DNA of 11,656 bases from a virus (Duplodnaviria > Heunggongvirae > Uroviricota > Caudoviricetes): IMG/VR virus record IMGVR_UViG_2778261571_000003. One strand, written 5' to 3'. The notes below the pieces were generated by a model that saw only the letters and a list, made by a program, of their open reading frames with translations, searched no databases and was not told where the DNA came from. Both the position numbers and the translations under genes were made by a program. Positions 1 to 11,656 of this stretch are shown in pieces (positions within the stretch are counted from its first letter, which is position 1; every line of letters begins with the position of its first letter).

Positions 1-51
1 GACCACCATTATCAAGCTTGCGCCGAAGAGCATCATTTTCAGCTTTCGCAT
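1..51 (-). CDS. Rz1: Rz1-like o-spanin, 5' part only (embedded in the +1 frame of Rz; runs off window start)
   Basis: Minus-strand ATG at 51..49 inside Rz in the +1 frame; translation begins [17 protein letters not shown], matching the N-terminus recalled for lambda/DLP12 Rz1 lipoprotein precursors (MRKLKMM...). Only 17 codons are in the window, so the lipobox is not visible. Confidence 0.45.
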
Positions 52-271
52 CAGCTAACTCCTTCGTGTATTTATCATCGAGTGCATCAGCATCACGCTG
101 GCGCTGCTGCATGTCAGTAATGGTGGCGTTCGCCTTCTCCAGTTCACTGGCCTTGTTATCGCGCTGTTCTTTGTAGGCGATTGCATTATCACGGTAATGA
201 TTAACAGCCCATGACAGGCAGACGATGATGCAGATAACCAGAGCGGAGATAATCGCGGTTACCCTGCTCAT
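1..271 (-). CDS. Rz: Rz-like i-spanin, N-terminal ~90 codons (3' end off window)
   Basis: Minus-strand ATG at 271..269 overlaps the endolysin stop (ATGA). Translation [90 protein letters not shown] has an N-terminal TM helix then a charged coiled-coil-like region, typical of Rz; position after the endolysin fits. Confidence 0.8.
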
Positions 272-765
272 TGTTGCCCCCACAAACAGACCTCACGCTC
301 AATCTCACGACGAGTCATCAGGCCTTTCCATTGCTTACCGCCAGCGTATGCCCAGCGACGTAGCTGGTCACATGCGCCCTTGATATCGCCCTGGTTTATT
401 TTGCGAAGAAGAGTAGATGTTCTGAAATTGCCTGCGCCCACGTTATAGACGAACGAGTAAAGAGCGCCGCGCGTTGTTTCCGGTATATCGACTTTGATGT
501 ACGGGTTAATTTGTCTGGCTACCGTGGCAAGGTCTTTATTCAGGAGGGCTTTGCATTCTGCTTCGGTATACGTTTTACCGGGAATGATGTCTTTTCCTGT
601 ATGCCCGTGACATACAGTCCATACGCCAACGATATCTTTGTATGGTATGTAGCTGACACCTTCCAGACCATCGTTACCACTTGGGCCAGTGATTAACACT
701 GATGCTATAGCAATTGCTCCGCCACCAATAGCAGCAGCAACGGCTTTTCGTAATGATGGAGGCAT
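268..765 (-). CDS. R: SAR endolysin (phage-21 R-type lysozyme, T4-lysozyme fold)
   Basis: 165-aa ORF. N-terminal Gly/Ala-rich weakly hydrophobic segment ([20 protein letters not shown]) typical of a signal-anchor-release domain. Catalytic triad spacing E-8aa-D-5aa-T is visible in [17 protein letters not shown]. Near-identical from memory to phage 21 R / DLP12 RrrD. Start ATG at 765..763 overlaps the holin stop (TAATG). Confidence 0.92.
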
Positions 766-980
766 TATTCACCTCTCGCAGCCTTGCGCTTATCTTCTTT
801 AATCTTGAAATAAAGGTTTGTCAGGTACGTCAGCAGGCCAAATACCAAGCTACCCAGCACACCTATTGCTGCCCACTGTGAGGGCGTGACTTTATCGAGC
901 AGCTGTAAAAACCAGTAGCCAGCACTGCCTGCGGAGGTGCCGTAGGCAATGCCCGTTGTTAACTTATCCATGGATTTCAT
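765..980 (-). CDS. S: Pinholin (phage-21 S-type class II holin), dual-start motif
   Basis: 71-aa [29 protein letters not shown]...[22 protein letters not shown] with two TM segments and a charged C-terminus. Met1 and Met4 (MKSMDK) fit the antiholin/holin dual-start arrangement known for S21. RBS GGAGGTGAGG upstream of ATG at 980. Confidence 0.9.
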
Positions 981-1069
981 AGCCTCACCTCCGCAAATAA
1001 CGGATGGTGTACACGGTTCGGAACGAAGAGGAAAGGTATAGAAGTTACATTAGCGTAAGGCTTGAACAT

Positions 1070-1106
1070 CTATTCAAAAAGAAAAACGCCGCGATTATTC
1101 TGGCGT
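1070..1106 (-). terminator. Possible intrinsic terminator after the AraC-family gene
   Basis: On the minus strand a short hairpin (ACGCC ... GGCGT, 5-bp stem at 1086-1090 / 1102-1106) is followed by a T-rich run (complement of the plus-strand A-run around 1075-1085). The stem is weak. Confidence 0.3.
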
Positions 1107-1167
1107 AGCTGAAAGCATCATACAATTATCAAATACGAAAATTACAAAATCATTAAAACGCATCACG

Positions 1168-1899
1168 TTACATCATGTCTTTTTCTAAAAAAAATCTTGA
1201 TGAATATTGATGGGGAGGAACACCAAAATACCTTCTGAAAACACTTACAAAATATGACGTGTTTTCATAACCGCATATCTCAGCAACTTTTCCAACAGAA
1301 TATAAATTGTAGCTTAATAACCTTTCCGCCATCACCATTCGCTCTTCAAGAATTAACTTACTAAATGATAAGCCTTCGTGCTTTAATTTTCTTTTTAACA
1401 GACTTTCACTCAGATACAGTCTTGAAGATATATCACAAAGTCTCCATGCTGCAGATATATCCGTGTGAATAATAGCCTTAACTTTACTTCCTAAACTATT
1501 AAGACATCCAAATAAAAAACTTTGCACTATTTTCTCTGAAGATAAGATAGCAAGACATGCAAGTGATATTTGATTTCTAACAAAATCCACAGTTCTGCCA
1601 TCACAATTCAAGCATGCAATCAAGTTCTTTAACAATGAAAAATCTTCACATTCCACCATCAAGTATGCCGGATAAAACCTTCTTACAGAAAAAGGTGAGA
1701 GTGTGTTGCTTTTAAAGAAATCATTAACTGTTTTCTCTTCAACATCTACGATCATTACATGATCTATATTTGATGAAAAAAAATCTTTTAAATTGTAATC
1801 AATGAGAACAGCACTTCCTTTTTTAAACAAAATATCTTCTTTACCAATTCGGACATCAAACGAGTTCAACACCAAAATGATAGAACATATGTATGGCAT
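1168..1899 (-). CDS. AraC-family transcriptional regulator (AppY/EnvY-like, AT-rich)
   Basis: C-terminal AraC-type HTH signature (..VGKVAEICGYENTSYFVSVFRRYFGVPPHQY..). Gene is visibly AT-rich compared with the phage backbone. The track ORF begins at GTG 1908; I prefer ATG 1899 (MPYICSI...) because AGGTGG sits 5-6 nt upstream. Stop TAA at 1170..1168. Confidence 0.85.
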   Translation of the reverse strand: MPYICSIILVLNSFDVRIGKEDILFKKGSAVLIDYNLKDFFSSNIDHVMIVDVEEKTVNDFFKSNTLSPFSVRRFYPAYLMVECEDFSLLKNLIACLNCDGRTVDFVRNQISLACLAILSSEKIVQSFLFGCLNSLGSKVKAIIHTDISAAWRLCDISSRLYLSESLLKRKLKHEGLSFSKLILEERMVMAERLLSYNLYSVGKVAEICGYENTSYFVSVFRRYFGVPPHQYSSRFFLEKDMM

Positions 1900-2250
1900 A
1901 TTATCCACCTGATATCATTGGGGTTACACCAGGTAAGTATAGGTGGAAAATCAATATTCGCCAGTTCAACAATAAGGAAAATTTCATTGCATCACAAGTA
2001 TAAAATTATGTATTTAACTCACAAAGACAAATTATTAAACCAATCCGTTATATTATATATAGCTGCGTGGAATCATAATATTATATATTTTGACTGGCAT
2101 GTTTACCAACTTTAAGTTGCATCTCAATTGTTTCTTCAGCGTAAACAGAGTTTTTATACAAACTGACACTCTGGGTATCATAGTGTAGTTTTTACGATTG
2201 TAAATATCCTGCATGCAGGAACTCATCCTTTTGGATGATATCGCATACAA

Positions 2251-3210
2251 TTAATTTACCATCAGTCTTAGAGCCAGTTCGTCCGGATAGGGATCGAAGT
2301 AATTCTGTGTAAGCAAGTAATCATTAGGATACTCACCCAGATAATGCTTCAGCAGAGTCAACGGCGCAAGAAGAGGTAATGTGCCAGAACGATAGTTAAG
2401 TATAACCTCGCTCAACTCTTTACGCTGGCGTGTACTTAAGTAGTTACTAAAATACCCCTGTATATGCATCAGCACATTCGTGTGATTTTTACGTGATGCA
2501 GGTTTTCTGAGAATCGCCATCAGCTTATCACGATACACCTCAAAGTATGATTCAAGGTCCGCCCACTCGTGTATTGCAGCCACAAATGGTCCCATATCTT
2601 TATAGCCTGCCTGACTATGCGCCAACAACTGAAGCTTATAACGACTATGAAAAGCTAATAACTCTCTTCTTGATAATTTCTCCTTGTAAAGGTGATTGAG
2701 CTCATGCAAAGCAAAAACTCTTTCAACAAAATTCTCACGAAGCACTGGATCATGTAATCGCCCATCCTCTTCAACCGGTAGCCAGGAAAACTTTTCCATC
2801 AAAGTGCTCGTAAATAGTCCCACTCCATCTTTACGACCTCGATTACCATTTTCATCATAGACACGCACGCGCTCCATGCCACAGCTGGGAGATTTAGCAC
2901 AAACCACAAACCCCGATACATCCTTTAATTTGTCCATATAAGAACGACTAAACTCTGTCATTCTCTCTGTCACATCCTCATTCTGGTCGTGGCTGAAACA
3001 CATCCGTATATTTCCTTGCGTCGAGCGCACAAGACGTAGAGCAGGACGCGGAACTGGCAGCCCTATAGCCATTTCCGGACATACTGGTCTGAATGTTACC
3101 CATTCCACTAATTTGTCCATTAAAAAGTCAGCTCTTTTGTGACCACCATCAAAACGAACAGCAGAACCGGCCAAACAACCGCTGATTCCAATCACAGGTT
3201 TTTTTATCAT
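2251..3210 (-). CDS. DUF523/DUF1722 two-domain protein (YbgA/TudS-like family)
   Basis: 319-aa ORF. N-terminal region (PVIGISGCLAGSAVRFDGG...VCPEMAIGLPVPR...) resembles the Cys-containing DUF523 core; the C-terminal half resembles DUF1722. RBS GGGGGAG before ATG at 3210. Family assignment is from memory, not a search. Confidence 0.7.
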   Translation of the reverse strand: MIKKPVIGISGCLAGSAVRFDGGHKRADFLMDKLVEWVTFRPVCPEMAIGLPVPRPALRLVRSTQGNIRMCFSHDQNEDVTERMTEFSRSYMDKLKDVSGFVVCAKSPSCGMERVRVYDENGNRGRKDGVGLFTSTLMEKFSWLPVEEDGRLHDPVLRENFVERVFALHELNHLYKEKLSRRELLAFHSRYKLQLLAHSQAGYKDMGPFVAAIHEWADLESYFEVYRDKLMAILRKPASRKNHTNVLMHIQGYFSNYLSTRQRKELSEVILNYRSGTLPLLAPLTLLKHYLGEYPNDYLLTQNYFDPYPDELALRLMVN

Positions 3211-3402
3211 ATTCTCCCCCTTGACTAATTCATTAACACATAAACTGTGTAGTGCACGGAATAAATTGCCTTTCTGGCGTCATCACTGACAATTTTTCTG
3301 TTATGGACTATTCCTAATATAGTATGAAAGTTCTTTAAGTGATCGGTCGTAATCATCTATCTTTCATACTTACTCTCAACTATCAAAAGTACAGGATTTA
3401 TT

Positions 3403-3927
3403 ATGAAGTTATGGCCTGTGTTGACTGGCATTGCACTCTCTTTCACTCTTATAGCATGTAAGGCCCCGACACCACCTAAAGGTGTGCAGCCGATTACAAA
3501 TTTTGACGCCAACCGCTACCTCGGAAAATGGTATGAAATAGCTCGCCTCGAGAACCGGTTCGAACGTGGTCTGGAACAGGTCAGCGCTACTTATGGAAAA
3601 CGGAACGACGGAGGGATTCGTGTACTTAACCGTGGATACGATCCAACGAAAAATAAATGGAGCGAGAGCGAAGGTAAAGCATACTTTACTGGAGATACTA
3701 AAACTGCAGCATTGAAGGTTTCGTTTTTTGGCCCCTTCTATGGTGGCTATAATGTAATCAAACTGGATGATGAGTATAAGTATGCTCTTGTCAGTGGTCC
3801 GAACAGAGAATACCTATGGATTCTGGCAAGGACCCCAACTATTCCAGATAAAGTAAAAGCAGACTATGTGCGAACCGCTCAAAAGTTGGGATTCAATGTC
3901 AATGAATTATTATGGGTTAAACAATAA
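3403..3927 (+). CDS. blc: Outer-membrane lipoprotein Blc (bacterial lipocalin) homologue
   Basis: 174-aa ORF with signal peptide and lipobox (..FTLIAC|KAPTPP). Lipocalin signature recalled from E. coli Blc: NFDANRYLGKWYEIARLENRFERG, GKAYFTG, LKVSFFGPFYGGYNVI, YLWILARTP. Only gene of the operon region on the plus strand; clearly diverged from the E. coli chromosomal Blc as I recall it. Confidence 0.88.
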   Translation: MKLWPVLTGIALSFTLIACKAPTPPKGVQPITNFDANRYLGKWYEIARLENRFERGLEQVSATYGKRNDGGIRVLNRGYDPTKNKWSESEGKAYFTGDTKTAALKVSFFGPFYGGYNVIKLDDEYKYALVSGPNREYLWILARTPTIPDKVKADYVRTAQKLGFNVNELLWVKQ

Positions 3928-3953
3928 AATCCCTACCCGAAATAATACTTATT

Positions 3954-3982
3954 AGAAAAAAACCAGCCTTTGGGGAGGCTGG
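3954..3982 (-). terminator. Rho-independent terminator downstream of Q (tR'-like position)
   Basis: Minus-strand RNA: CCAGCCU-CCCCAA-AGGCUGG (7-bp GC-rich stem at 3963-3969 / 3976-3982, 6-nt loop) followed by a U7 run (plus-strand A-run 3956-3962). Lies ~100 nt beyond the Q stop, where lambdoid phages place the late-leader terminator. Confidence 0.6.
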
Positions 3983-4082
3983 CTAAATCAGGAAACAAGC
4001 TGTTATATGATAATAACTACGTTGCGATTCCAACATTTAAAATGTTAGACTAATGACAATCAGACAGCAACTTTTCCTTTAA
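3983..4082 (-). promoter_or_regulatory. Putative late promoter / Q-utilisation region between Q and the terminator
   Basis: Inferred from position only (lambdoid late promoter and Q binding/pause site lie directly downstream of Q). Candidate minus-strand elements such as TTGGAA ... TATCAT exist, but no confident -35/-10 pair could be fixed by eye. Confidence 0.3.
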
Positions 4083-4460
4083 TTATTTCGAACAATCAGC
4101 ATCCATCTCCAATCGGAGATCCAACACCATCAGCATACCCTCCACTACGCCCTCAGCTTTCTGAAGCATCCTGCCAACCCAACAATCAGATCGCCCATGC
4201 TTACGTGCAAGCGCCATAAAAGTCATGCCGCCGACATAATAGTCCACCAATAAATCATGCAAATCGCTGTTGTTCTTTTTCAGACGGGCCATGCACCCGC
4301 AAATGATCATCGCGTCATCGTCACAACATTGTGGGCGAGATTTTACTTTTGAAGGAATTAATCCCTTAAAACCGGCGGCAATGGACGACCAGGTCACATC
4401 TTCATGATTATTAGCCGCCCACGCTCCCCAACGCTCAAGAACCATCTGAATATCACGCAT
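4083..4460 (-). CDS. Q: Late-gene antiterminator Q (phage-82 / DLP12 QuuD type)
   Basis: Translation [75 protein letters not shown]... matches what I recall of DLP12 QuuD, including the Cys-rich segment. Track ORF starts at TTG 4475; ATG 4460 (MRDIQ...) preferred. Stop TAA 4085..4083. Confidence 0.85.
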
Positions 4461-4545
4461 CAACTTACTCCACAAAACTCAGACCAGAACGCCAATTACA
4501 AGCAAAAATCAACAAAACAGTATTAGTTGATTGTTATCTCTGACT

Positions 4546-6986: not shown

Positions 6987-7481
6987 TCATTTCCAATTGC
7001 AAGACTGTGAAATTTTTTCCACAACCTTATCAATCTCAGACAAGTCAAACTCAACTACTTGCATAGTTGATCCATAAGGTTCAAACCCAAAAATAGCTTT
7101 TTTATGCTTAGCCAAGGTCTTTATAAATTGTATTGGTTGTGGAGCAAATGCAGAATCACCGCCTTCCCCACCTCCCCAAACACTCTTGACCGGCTTTCCG
7201 CCATCTAACCGCACTGTAATTCTTGGGTTGTCCGAACCCATATAATCATTGAATGATAAATAGGCATCTGTTTTGTTATCACTACAACGCAACACCAGTG
7301 AAGTTGCACGATCAGTACCTGCTTTGTTATATGAATCTGGTGATAAATTAAGAGCCACAAAGTCAGTCTGGTCAGTCATTTTATTTATCTCAGACTTTGT
7401 TATCCACGGCCCTAACTTCTCTACACCAGCATTTGCTGTAAACGAGGCACTTATAACAAAGGCTAAAATAAATTTTCTCAT
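6987..7481 (-). CDS. Secreted/periplasmic protein of unknown function (cargo gene)
   Basis: 164-aa ORF with a classical signal peptide (MRKFILAFVISASFTANA|GVEK...). Strong RBS AAGGAG 8 nt before ATG 7481. AT-rich relative to neighbours. No family recognised; no counterpart at this position in lambda. Confidence 0.7.
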   Translation of the reverse strand: MRKFILAFVISASFTANAGVEKLGPWITKSEINKMTDQTDFVALNLSPDSYNKAGTDRATSLVLRCSDNKTDAYLSFNDYMGSDNPRITVRLDGGKPVKSVWGGGEGGDSAFAPQPIQFIKTLAKHKKAIFGFEPYGSTMQVVEFDLSEIDKVVEKISQSCNWK

Positions 7482-9511: not shown

Positions 9512-10051
9512 TCATATTGCCCCCAGCATGGTGGTGACCATCGCCATCAGTGGACCAGCCAAATCCGGGTCCACACGAAACATCGACACAATGCCTTCAC
9601 TCATCTCCTTCAGTTTCTGGTGGCGTGGTGCGTTGAGAATGACAGCCTGTTTTGCCTCACTGAGTTCCTTTTCCATTTCAGCCAGCCGAGCCATGAAGCT
9701 ATCCTGCTCAACCAGGTGGCCGCGATATTCCAGCGGTAGTACCGCCAGAATTGCCGGGGTCAATTCACGCACGTTATTTCGGTATTTTTCAGAATCGAAT
9801 TTGTTATCGAGGAAGCGGAACAGCTTCTGGCGTGCACGGCTGACATCATCAGGGAAATCGATGGTGCCGCCGCCCTGCTCCCGATACTCATTCACAATGA
9901 GTGCGGCAACGACATCCTGATTATCTACAGCCGACCAGGCGCGGACGGCATCACGGATTTTTTCGTGGCCTGGAGCTTGTTTTGTTTGAGAACGATTTAT
10001 CACCGCAGTCGGGCTAAATCCGCTAGTCTGTTGGTATGTAAGTGGTTGCAT
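9512..10051 (-). CDS. YdaT-family protein (CII-position regulator; annotated 'toxin YdaT' in Rac-like prophages)
   Basis: 179-aa ORF in the cII position between the Cro-like gene and O. Motifs IVNEYREQGGG and ELTPAILAVLPLEYRGHL resemble those I recall from Rac YdaT. RBS AAGGAG 7 nt before ATG 10051. Confidence 0.65.
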   Translation of the reverse strand: MQPLTYQQTSGFSPTAVINRSQTKQAPGHEKIRDAVRAWSAVDNQDVVAALIVNEYREQGGGTIDFPDDVSRARQKLFRFLDNKFDSEKYRNNVRELTPAILAVLPLEYRGHLVEQDSFMARLAEMEKELSEAKQAVILNAPRHQKLKEMSEGIVSMFRVDPDLAGPLMAMVTTMLGAI

Positions 10052-10351: not shown

Positions 10352-10455
10352 AACAACCTCCGTGGTTAATTTGAATCAAGATTAAAACTATGGTTGTTTT
10401 TAGTCAACAACCATTTTCGTTTGATGAAATAAAACCTTGGTTGTACATTTGGACT
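10352..10455. promoter_or_regulatory. Divergent operator/promoter region between the Cro-like and cI genes
   Basis: Perfect 9-bp inverted repeat ATGGTTGTT-7bp-AACAACCAT at 10390-10414. Half-site GGTTGT/ACAACC recurs at 10353-10358, 10392-10397, 10407-10412 and 10439-10444. Candidate rightward promoter on the minus strand: -35 TTGACT (10402-10407) overlapping the palindrome, 17-bp spacer, -10 TAATCT (10379-10384). Candidate cI promoter: TTGATG (10421-10426), 17-bp spacer, TACATT (10444-10449), ending 6 nt before the cI ATG with no SD, suggesting a leaderless mRNA. Confidence 0.5.
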
Positions 10456-11145
10456 ATGAAAACAACACTCTCAGAAAGACTTAAAGAAGCCAGATTAGCG
10501 CGAGGCCTTACACAAAAGGCGCTTGGGGATTTGGTCGGGGTTAGCCAAGCAGCTATTCAGAAAATCGAAACAGGGAAAGCTAACCAAACAACTAAAATCG
10601 TGGAGATCGCGAACGCTTTGGGTGTGCGCGCAGAATGGTTATCTTCTGGCGTTGGAAATATGTCAGACAGTACAGTGCAACCAATACAAACAACTGTCAG
10701 CCATTCCAAATACTTTAAGATTGACGTTCTTGATATCGAAGTGAGTGCCGGGCCGGGAGTCATCAACCGTGAGTTTGTAGAAGTTCTACGTTCGGTTGAG
10801 TATTCGTTTGACGATGCTCGTCACATGTTCGATGGCAGGAAGGCGGAAAATATCCGTATCATTAACGTACGCGGTGACAGCATGTCAGGAACGATCGAAC
10901 CAGGTGATCTGCTGTTCGTTGATATCACTGTTAAATCTTTCGACGGTGATGGTATCTATGCGTTTCTGTACGACGACACAGCCCATGTAAAGCGCCTGCA
11001 AATGATGAAGGATAAACTGCTGGTTATCTCTGATAACAAGAGCTACTCACCGTGGGACCCAATCGAGAAAGACGAGATGAACCGGGTATTCATCTTCGGG
11101 AAAGTCATCGGGAGCATGCCGCAGACGTATAGGAAGCATGGATAA
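10456..11145 (+). CDS. cI: CI-type prophage repressor (XRE-family HTH + LexA-like S24 peptidase domain)
   Basis: From ATG 10456: MKTTLSERLKEARLARGLTQKALGDLVGVSQAAIQKIETGK.. (HTH), with a C-terminal autocleavage domain carrying the Ser/Lys dyad context (..VRGDSMSGTIEPGDLLFVD.. and ..AHVKRLQ..). Divergent from the Cro-like gene. The track start at 10390 is an extension that would begin inside the operator palindrome. Confidence 0.9.
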   Translation: MKTTLSERLKEARLARGLTQKALGDLVGVSQAAIQKIETGKANQTTKIVEIANALGVRAEWLSSGVGNMSDSTVQPIQTTVSHSKYFKIDVLDIEVSAGPGVINREFVEVLRSVEYSFDDARHMFDGRKAENIRIINVRGDSMSGTIEPGDLLFVDITVKSFDGDGIYAFLYDDTAHVKRLQMMKDKLLVISDNKSYSPWDPIEKDEMNRVFIFGKVIGSMPQTYRKHG

Positions 11146-11240: not shown

Positions 11241-11494
11241 ATGGAAGAACGTGGGAATTACCTAATAGCCCCCCTAGAAGTAATTGGTTCTGGCGGTTTT
11301 GGCCTTGTAGAAAAAATAAGGTTATATAACTCACAAAGAAAAATTTGTGGTCTATATGCCAGAAAAATTTTACGACCTGATGCAACAGATCCTGAACTCT
11401 TTACCAGATTTGAACGAGAAGTAAGATATCAAACTGAATGCCTGCATACTAATATTGTCCAAATATTCATATGCCACTTACAGAATGCTCAGCC
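11241..11494 (+). pseudogene. Hanks-type protein kinase gene, N-terminal ~84 codons only, interrupted by IS10
   Basis: MEERGNYLIAPLEVIGSGGFGLVEKIRLYNSQRKICGLYARKILRPDATDPELFTRFEREVRYQ... shows the glycine-rich loop G-S-G-G-F-G-L-V, a beta3 lysine (YARK) and an alphaC glutamate (FEREV). The ORF ends at a stop supplied by the first bases of IS10 (cTGAtg at 11496-11498). RBS AAAAGGA before ATG 11241. Confidence 0.7.
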
Positions 11495-11656
11495 CTGATG
11501 AATCCCCTAATGATTTTGGTAAAAATCATTAAGTTAAGGTGGATACACATCTTGTCATATGATCAAATGGTTTCGCGAAAAATCAATAATCAGACAACAA
11601 GATGTGCGAACTCGATATTTTACACGACTCTCTTTACCAATTCTGCCCCGAATTAC
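11495..11656 (+). mobile_element. IS10 (Tn10-type IS4-family element), outside end; continues beyond window end
   Basis: From 11495 the sequence CTGATGAATCCCCTAATGATTTTGGTAAAAATCATTAAGTTAAGGTGGATACACATCTTGTCATATGATCAAATGG... matches the IS10 outside end as I recall it, including the terminal repeat, the IHF-site region and the Dam GATC (11561-11564) in the transposase promoter region. The 9 bp just outside (TGCTCAGCC, 11486-11494) fit the IS10 target consensus NGCTNAGCN. Confidence 0.85.
11602..11656 (+). CDS. IS10 transposase, first 18 codons (continues beyond window)
   Basis: ATG at 11602 followed by MCELDILHDSLYQFCPEL, the recalled N-terminus of IS10/Tn10 transposase. Confidence 0.8.
   Translation, partial: MCELDILHDSLYQFCPEL

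Follow-up and report, generated by a model that had tools for sequence, protein, structure and literature searches.

A probable lysogenic-conversion cassette of blc, rudS and an AraC-family gene in the late-operon cargo site of a lambda-like Escherichia coli prophage

A stretch of 11,656 nucleotides from a lambda-like Escherichia coli prophage (IMG/VR record IMGVR_UViG_2778261571_000003, Caudoviricetes; hereafter the window) carries three non-phage genes (positions 1168-3927) between the gene of a Q21-family antiterminator (Q) and that of an S21-type holin. What do these genes encode, where did they come from, and do they serve the lysogen, the lytic cycle or neither? A sequence-only reading had described them as a cargo (moron) block in the Q-to-S interval, and this description was borne out by the comparison with relatives: a porin gene lies at the same junctions in related phages, the order Q, blc, rudS, araC, holin, lysozyme recurs in 74 of 80 IMG/VR contigs (most of the others being cut by contig ends), and the inspected E. 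coli contexts are all lambdoid prophages. The block, composed of a blc-type lipocalin gene, rudS and the gene of an AraC-family regulator, is probably a mosaic cassette for lysogenic conversion that occupies the late-operon cargo site of lambdoid coliphages and is tied to a Q21-family antiterminator gene. All three open reading frames lie where the sequence-only reading had placed them, except for the likely start of the regulator gene (see below), and its three family assignments were upheld by profile searches with Pfam and NCBIfam, although the PHROG families of all three proteins are labelled "unknown function". Statements on function made here by way of orthologues rest on 93% identity for RudS, on 52-54% for the regulator and on family level for Blc.

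Identity of the three cargo genes

The middle gene had been read as a fused DUF523/DUF1722 gene, and its product indeed carries both domains on the same polypeptide, each at ∼138 bits in Pfam: 2-thiour_desulf (PF04463; 137.9 bits, residues 7-149, the full profile length), which corresponds to the TudS domain, and DUF1722 (PF08349; 138.2 bits, residues 192-309). The YbgA-type model of NCBIfam matches residues 160-315, and the direct match to the TudS structure 6z92 is weak (E = 2.2e-4). Across all 319 residues the protein shares 93% identity with RudS_vir (gp66, H3V29_gp66), which is encoded by Escherichia phage 1H12. TudS-DUF1722 fusions strip the 4-thiouridine (s4U) modification from tRNA, and E. 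coli that overexpresses them shows less growth delay after UVA (Jamontas et al, NAR 2024; PMC11417400); RudS_vir was one of the six enzymes tested in that study and lowered tRNA s4U upon expression in E. coli. The ligands of the [4Fe-4S] cluster in RudS_vir and RudS_ST are Cys12, Cys44 and Cys110 (Table 1 in PMC11417400), and the activity of RudS_KT was abolished by mutating E51, R60, S111 or S113. The protein encoded in the window has cysteines at positions 12, 44, 71, 104 and 110, of which C12, C44 and C110 are invariant among twelve enterobacterial homologues (alignment A5), as are E46, R55, S107 and S109. Thus, all seven residues essential in RudS_KT (three Cys, Glu, Arg and two Ser) were found, mapped by fixed offsets from the cluster cysteines (C-P-E and S-P-S-C motifs) rather than by structure.

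Judged by these features, the middle gene is predicted to encode RudS, a [4Fe-4S] tRNA 4-thiouridine desulfidase, and not a protein of unknown function. By analogy with the 93%-identical RudS_vir, the allele in the window would be expected to remove s4U from tRNA. The gene of RudS_vir resembles that in the window in being part of the same three-gene block, in its position and in its catalytic set; it is, however, a different allele, and the block of 1H12 is only ∼90% identical to that of the window at the DNA level. The blc and araC neighbors of RudS_vir, and its position in the late operon, are not discussed in the RudS paper (PMC11417400).

The gene next to Q had been assigned to a diverged Blc, encoded on the strand opposite the late genes, and this assignment stands. 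The product matched Lipocalin_2 (PF08212; 149.7 bits) and, above the cut-off of 267 bits, the Blc subfamily model of NCBIfam (NF007786; 316.1 bits); Blc chains in the PDB were matched with E-values of 1e-66 to 1e-69 (3.5e-69 for 3mbt, ∼1e-68 for 1qwd). The lipoprotein signal as read from the translation is MKLWPVLTGIALSFTLIAC-K, with the lipobox L16-I-A-C19 and a lysine, not an aspartate, at position +2 after the lipobox Cys19, which predicts sorting to the outer membrane. Blc of E. coli K-12 (b4149, the gene of which adjoins ampC) shares fold, family, lipoprotein signal and lipobox with the phage protein, and the Blc encoded on plasmids together with CMY-2, derived from the ampC locus of Citrobacter, belongs to the same family. 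Identity to these proteins is 60% and 61.5%, respectively, as opposed to 77-82% for Blc encoded next to rudS on enterobacterial chromosomes. An orthologue of the ampC-linked blc of E. coli and Citrobacter was rejected on account of these values, and the phage Blc belongs instead to a separate, rudS-linked lineage within the Blc family. That blc is a frequent moron of lambda phages has been noted before, the gene having been listed in more than half of the lambda phages of Mathieu et al (2020).

The third gene was listed as an open reading frame spanning 1168-1908; RefSeq starts the identical gene at the ATG at 1899, which is the likely start and yields a protein of 243 aa. Its C-terminal double helix-turn-helix domain, of the AraC/XylS type, is recognized in Pfam by HTH_18 (54.9 bits, residues 161-237) and HTH_AraC (44.1 bits), and the protein matches phrog_1450 (358.7 bits). 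The best model in NCBIfam was that of YdeO, aligned over its full length (residues 4-239). Identity as YdeO itself was rejected, the score of 127.3 bits being far below the cut-off of 348 bits for this equivalog (NF007407). The protein is 83-85% identical to the alleles of other phages (1H12 and a Qin-like prophage), 52-54% to ECs_0287 of strain Sakai (the PatE candidate), 39% to PsrA (ECs_1087, long reading frame), 33% to GadW, 31% to YdeO, 30-32% to AppY, 26% to GadX and 24-29% to EnvY. The sequence-only reading, which had likened the regulator to the AppY/EnvY type, was therefore correct as to the subgroup but not as to the nearest relatives, which are the PatE candidate and PsrA. Homology with the YdeO/AppY/GadW/PatE/Psr group extends over the full length (alignment A4) and includes an N-terminal motif, MxxxCS[V/I]I, in which M1 and C5 are invariant; both recognition helices of the helix-turn-helix domains are almost identical in the regulator and in ECs_0287. 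The regulator is best described as an uncharacterised, faster-evolving member of the PatE/Psr group.

PatE (z0321, encoded on OI-8/CP-933H) and PsrA/PsrB of enterohemorrhagic E. coli (EHEC) O157:H7 are, like the regulator, prophage-borne, ∼240 aa in length, AT-rich at the DNA level and homologous over the full length. They reside, however, in other prophages and among other gene neighbors. AppY and EnvY of DLP12, YdeO, GadW and GadX belong to the same AraC/XylS subgroup but are more distant; furthermore, appY and envY sit at the far end of DLP12, whereas the gene in the window occupies the Q-S site. Sakai prophage Sp4 likewise has psrA placed between its Q and lysis genes, which indicates that this kind of regulator recurs at the site. 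PatE, PsrB and AppY each activate gadE/hdeAB, with a gain in acid resistance, PsrA and PsrB repress type III secretion via GadE, and AppY, YdeO, GadX and GadW converge on gadE. Considering the conserved recognition helices and the activities of PatE, PsrB and AppY, the regulator may well activate the gadE/hdeAB acid-resistance regulon. A "PatE (CIW80_12240)" that was overexpressed in E. coli Nissle (bioRxiv 10.1101/2025.08.01.668021) could not be matched to the regulator of the cassette, as the locus tags in RefSeq follow a new numbering in which RS12240 corresponds to bcsZ.

Cassette boundaries and transcription signals

The limits of the cassette were set by comparing the Q-S interval across relatives. 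Homology (blastn) to two porin carriers, phage ev243 and the cryptic K-12 prophage DLP12, covers window positions 24-991 and those from 4101 on only, which places the junctions at 991/992 and 4100/4101 (Table 1). Exchanged between these junctions are the entire control region next to Q, all three genes and the spacer that leads to the holin gene (alignments A1 and A2). In Qin-like prophages (loci L009-L011), homology reaches window position 4497; in these, cargo and complete Q gene move together. At the same site and with the same flanks, DLP12 and ev243 carry an nmpC/ompD-type porin gene, which is antisense to late transcription as is blc. Besides the different cargo, the cassette in the window differs from the porin type in that the exchange extends into Q, whose last six codons are swapped along with the whole Q-proximal promoter/terminator region. 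In Stx phages, the cargo of the Q-S site consists of stx and tRNA genes in place of blc-rudS-araC. The shift in base composition that had been reported for the block is real, with a GC content of 38.1% for the swapped cassette (992-4100) and 47.1% for the remaining window.

Table 1. Coordinates of the cargo genes, their flanking genes and the signals in the Q-S interval of the window.
Feature	Positions	Strand	Remarks
Lysozyme gene	268-765	-	Phage_lysozyme, 155.7 bits (Pfam)
S21-type holin gene	765-980	-	Phage_holin_2_1, 120.9 bits (Pfam); essD in the annotation of identical genomes
Exchangeable cassette	992-4100	-	includes the final six codons of Q; ends 11 nt short of the holin start
Weak hairpin ACGCC...GGCGT + T-rich run	1076-1106	-	between araC and the holin gene; in the centroid fold
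AraC-family regulator gene	1168-1899	-	243 aa; HTH_18, HTH_AraC; 31.8% GC
rudS-araC spacer	1900-2250	-	32.2% GC; candidate araC promoters
rudS (TudS/DUF523 + DUF1722 fusion)	2251-3210	-	319 aa; PF04463 + PF08349; 43.4% GC
blc-rudS divergent spacer	3211-3402	.	34% GC; presumed blc and rudS promoters; IS2 target 3278-3283
blc-type lipocalin lipoprotein gene	3403-3927	+ (antisense to late transcription)	174 aa; Lipocalin_2; 43.8% GC
Intrinsic terminator (tR' equivalent)	3984-3954 (hairpin 3984-3961, then T run)	-	terminator scan, fold
Q-to-terminator spacer	3985-4082	-	presumed PR' and Q-loading site, by position in a canonical Q cassette
Q antiterminator gene	4083-4460 annotated (ORF 4083-4475)	-	Phage_antitermQ (PF06530), 173 bits

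The Q protein is 87.5% identical to QuuD of DLP12 and matches the Q21 structures 6p18/6jnx (E = 1.9e-8). Downstream of its gene, 99 nt past the stop codon, lies the only strong terminator-like site between positions 700 and 4500. It reads AGCCAGCCT-CCCCAA-AGGCTGG(TT) and is followed by a T run; a 131-nt fold has a z-score of −4.25, and none of 200 shuffled sequences was as stable. The layout fits that of a Q cassette, with Q gene, PR', pause element, terminator and late genes on one strand. As rudS and araC lie downstream of this tR' equivalent and are oriented like the late genes, of which the holin gene is the first after the cargo, a Q-dependent transcript is expected to include both. The statement in the sequence-only reading that none of the three genes is a phage function is therefore to be qualified, since rudS and araC are expected to be transcribed in the lytic cycle.

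A consensus promoter scan of the Q-to-terminator spacer (3985-4082) yielded no match of at least 9/12 except one that overlaps the end of Q. Hexamers that may represent PR' are TTGCTG (4070-4065) and, after 17 nt, TAACAT (4047-4042), which form a weak candidate. A -10-like TATCAT (4012-4007) followed by ATAACAG is common to the window and the porin-type cassette (alignment A1) and is a candidate for part of the Q-loading site. The porin-type cassette (L007 10341-10529, L004 3923-4110) has three consecutive hairpins versus the single terminator in the window, and in its Q-proximal region the -10-like hexamer with ATAACAG is all that it has in common with the window; comparing the Q-proximal regions of the two types may help define the Q-loading site of this subgroup of Q.

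Elsewhere in the block, rudS is preceded by a strong Shine-Dalgarno sequence and, further upstream, by the promoter-like TTGAGA-16-GATGAT (3379-3352, minus strand). The two best promoter-like sites of the region (10/12 each), TTTACA-16-TATGAT (2204-2177) and TTGGTA-18-TATAAT (2109-2080), both lie upstream of araC. Two small open reading frames in this spacer, at 2053-2250 and at 1918-2115, are left unannotated by PGAP in identical genomes. For the spacers of the block, scans for Rfam families and tRNAs gave no match above the gathering score and one sub-threshold Rfam match, which falls on the terminator hairpin. The weak hairpin at 1076-1106 might possibly be a terminator of araC that shields the holin gene; its fold is no better than that of shuffled sequences (z = 0.77), and it was not reported by the terminator scan.

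Origin, spread and selection of the cassette

Chromosomal rudS genes were surveyed in one genome per bacterial species, together with 6-kb flanks. A total of 64 loci was found, with RudS proteins 66-77% identical to that of the window, in Citrobacter, Enterobacter, Leclercia, Lelliottia, Kluyvera, Klebsiella oxytoca, Pectobacterium, Dickeya and others. At ∼45 of the 64 loci (e.g., in Enterobacter, Leclercia and Citrobacter sedlakii), a gene for the closely related Blc lies just upstream on the opposite strand, so that rudS and blc diverge as they do in the phage. Q, holin, lysozyme and an AraC gene of the type in the window were all absent within 6 kb of these chromosomal rudS loci. The locus of Enterobacter cloacae has two genes between blc and rudS, one for a MerR/MlrA-type regulator and one for a transthyretin-like protein; the arrangement in Enterobacter and that of ORF242-ORF319 in Salmonella (SPI-2) have been discussed in the RudS paper (PMC11417400). 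In C. sedlakii, blc and rudS diverge directly, with a spacer of 188 nt (192 nt in the window), and the pair is flanked by genes for a BCCT transporter and a pseudouridine synthase. The spacer sequence of the phage is unrelated to the chromosomal spacers of Citrobacter. Chromosomal rudS is found with a MerR/MlrA-type regulator gene and without an AraC gene or phage genes, and the phage block shows the reverse. Citrobacter braakii ATCC 51113 has two rudS copies on different contigs, each 76% identical and without an adjacent blc.

The fact that the phage Blc is ∼80% identical to its rudS-linked paralogue, compared with 60% to Blc of E. coli, argues for capture of the blc-rudS pair from an enterobacterial chromosome. 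Both genes probably entered the phage together, without the MerR-type regulator gene, and the araC gene, with its still lower GC content of 31.8%, appears to have been added separately. All three genes together were found nowhere outside prophages; the pair alone occurs in the chromosomes of other Enterobacteriaceae, and its presence there points to the source of the cargo rather than to the lysis cassette being the insert. A functional link between blc and rudS is suggested by synteny alone, as nothing usable that connects lipocalins with the LitR/MerR light regulons was found in the literature. Two short contigs of the Saccharibacteria metagenome-assembled genome D148_maxbin.008, assigned to "Candidatus Nanosynbacter sp.", encode Q, Blc and RudS, and RudS, AraC, holin and lysozyme, respectively, with 94-100% aa identity to the coliphage cassette genes; they almost certainly represent mis-binned coliphage DNA.

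Of 5426 complete E. coli genomes, 1152 matched the cargo alone; 999 (∼18%) have at least 80% of its length, a share that is reached in 953 when the flanks are included. The E. coli alleles fall into identity bands of at least 99%, ∼95%, ∼90% and 80-90%. The lambdoid contexts comprise a complete lambda-like prophage adjoining ybhC and Qin-like prophages, and the block is also carried by isolated plaque-forming phages, namely IdasGreatGrand (98%) and 1H12 with eleven related lambda phages from the infant gut, Lambda_ev* (90%). An alignment-based scan of IMG/VR for more distant phage-borne RudS led back to the same close loci for 80 of 150 relatives.

Comparison of the window alleles with those of 1H12 gave dN/dS values of 0.26 for araC, 0.11 for rudS and 0.06 for blc. 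Because these are similar to the values for Q (0.10), holin (0.07) and lysozyme (0.06), all three cargo genes are under purifying selection. Individual strains show how the block can be broken. In strain PK8566, an IS2 element is inserted at 3278-3283, which is 68-73 nt upstream of rudS. The same increment of 1336 bp, with IS2 annotated, is seen in at least eight further listed genomes of varied hosts and countries. In E. coli C43(DE3) (NZ_CP011938.1, 1587616-1589012), a Qin-like prophage retains Q, an intact phage blc and 147 nt of rudS cut by IS3, from which it follows that E. coli B expression strains possess a second lipocalin gene and no functional RudS.

The window as a whole spans the early-right and late-left portions of a lambdoid prophage, with rightward and late genes on the minus strand. 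Its gene order is that of a cI-like repressor gene (10390-11145, plus strand), a cro-like gene, a YdaT-family gene, the replication genes O and P, the nin region (NinB, YbcO and RusA), Q, cargo, holin and lysozyme. The gene in the position of cII (9512-10051, minus strand) belongs to the YdaT family (PF06254; 103.7 bits) and is not a homologue of lambda cII. The far end of the window (11241-11656) contains an IS10 end, recognizable by RNA-OUT (RF00240; 98.8 bits) at 11540-11609 on the minus strand, and other E. coli genomes cease to match the window at 11497. The element apparently splits an open reading frame (11241-11498, plus strand) adjoining the repressor gene, the product of which resembles Ser/Thr protein kinases (Pkinase, E = 3e-5; phrog_2361, "serine-threonine kinase"). 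Another open reading frame (6987-7481, minus strand), located between P and the nin region, has a GC content of ∼38% and encodes 164 aa with a signal-peptide-like N-terminus; it belongs to phrog_1848, matches VasI of type VI secretion at the borderline (PF11319; 26.7 bits, cut-off 26.5) and is a candidate for a second cargo gene.

Competing explanations and meaning for E. coli

If the block is a lysogenic-conversion cassette, its history and use could be pictured as follows. The divergent blc-rudS pair would have been taken as a unit from a Citrobacter/Enterobacter-type chromosome, leaving behind the accompanying MerR-type regulator, and the AT-rich AraC/XylS regulator of the PatE/Psr/YdeO/AppY group would have been acquired separately. 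In the lysogen, each cargo gene would be expressed from its own promoter in an AT-rich spacer, with transcripts from PR' halting at 3984-3954. After induction, RNA polymerase modified by Q would pass the terminator and transcribe blc in antisense direction, rudS, araC and the lysis genes, much like stx in Stx phages. Judging from the orthologues, RudS would lower tRNA s4U and thereby blunt the growth delay caused by near-UV light (UVA), the regulator would switch on the gadE/hdeAB regulon as PatE, PsrB and AppY do, and Blc would aid lipid homeostasis of the outer membrane.

Several observations weigh against this picture. RudS_vir desulfidated tRNA more weakly than other RudS enzymes, despite being well expressed (PMC11417400). 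The equation of ECs_0287 with PatE (z0321) is inferred from its position in Sp1, which corresponds to OI-8/CP-933H, and from its being the sole AraC-type gene there, and even so the regulator is only 52-54% identical to it. PR', the pause element and the Q-binding element could not be pinned down by consensus, as there is no convincing -35/-10 pair. A gene as AT-rich as araC is likely silenced by H-NS under laboratory conditions. Finally, IS2, IS3, IS1 and IS5 often interrupt the block, and derivatives of E. coli B keep only blc and a 147-nt stub of rudS, which indicates that the cargo genes are dispensable.

Interruptions of this kind, together with truncations, the low GC content (32-44%) and the fact that a porin gene as alternative cargo works equally well for the phage, would also be in line with the three genes being neutral hitch-hikers that are silenced by H-NS and persist through physical linkage to the lysis genes and to the Q/PR' module, which is essential. 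Such an explanation is nevertheless unlikely: the open reading frames are intact in the 999 genomes with at least 80% of the cargo although alleles differ by up to ∼10% in DNA, dN/dS (0.06-0.26) is as low as that of the holin and lysozyme genes, RudS has kept all its catalytic residues and Blc its lipobox, and the pairing of blc and rudS is maintained in chromosomes as well. More probable than hitch-hiking, yet still doubtful, is a main role of RudS, and perhaps of the regulator, as late-operon auxiliary functions in the lytic cycle, a reading that would be compatible with that of a moron. Sunlight that induces the prophage would also cross-link s4U8 to C13 in tRNA, causing translation arrest and a ppGpp burst, and RudS produced from the late operon would strip s4U and allow translation to continue for virion production. 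The co-orientation of rudS with the late genes downstream of tR', akin to stx in Stx phages, would suit this role, as would the strong purifying selection on rudS in phages and its separation from the MerR-type regulator of chromosomal rudS. However, the strong Shine-Dalgarno sequence and the divergent, AT-rich, promoter-like spacer suggest independent expression in the lysogen, and tRNA that already carries s4U may turn over too slowly to make a difference within a single latent period, considering also the modest activity of RudS_vir.

The reverse polarity, i.e., that the block is ancestral chromosomal DNA into which the phage lysis and Q genes were inserted, is highly improbable. It could draw on the fact that Enterobacter, Leclercia and Citrobacter have blc-rudS pairs in chromosomal settings unrelated to phages, but the identity of these pairs is only 66-82%, they come without the AraC gene and they do not occur in E. 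coli, a species described as lacking RudS (PMC11417400) and in which, as in K-12, no chromosomal rudS is reported. Moreover, the inspected E. coli copies all reside in lambdoid prophages that differ in integration site and backbone (lambda-like at ybhC; Qin-like), and complete genomes of isolated phages carry the block.

A mosaic lysogenic-conversion cassette is therefore the preferred reading; as such, it is genuine but ordinary, and most of it was already known. The late-operon cargo site, blc as a lambda moron, an assayed rudS orthologue and the group of prophage regulators had been established before. What is added here is that the three genes make up a single conserved cassette, linked to a Q gene of the Q21 family and located downstream of tR', that the phage Blc is of the rudS-linked lineage, with a blc-rudS pair of chromosomal origin, that ∼18% of complete E. 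coli genomes have the cassette, and that its AraC gene joins the PatE/Psr group.

For the biology of E. coli, the cassette means that a temperate phage spreads a predicted tRNA-demodifying enzyme, an envelope lipocalin and a regulator of the acid-stress type through the species. The PatE/Psr group, to which the AraC gene belongs, rewires acid resistance and, in EHEC, type III secretion. Prophage-borne RudS, present in ∼18% of strains, could explain differences between strains in UVA growth delay and tRNA s4U levels, and the position of the phage Blc in the rudS-linked lineage hints at a functional link between the two genes. It is tempting to speculate, with due reserve, that blc-rudS is a conserved module of Enterobacteriaceae against near-UV and photo-oxidative stress, captured by a phage and placed under Q-dependent late transcription. 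If so, the phage would, after induction by sunlight, erase s4U from tRNA and so escape cross-linking, arrest of translation and a ppGpp burst, all of which would limit its output, and lysogeny would confer on about one-fifth of E. coli strains a capacity for tRNA de-modification that the species is said to lack.

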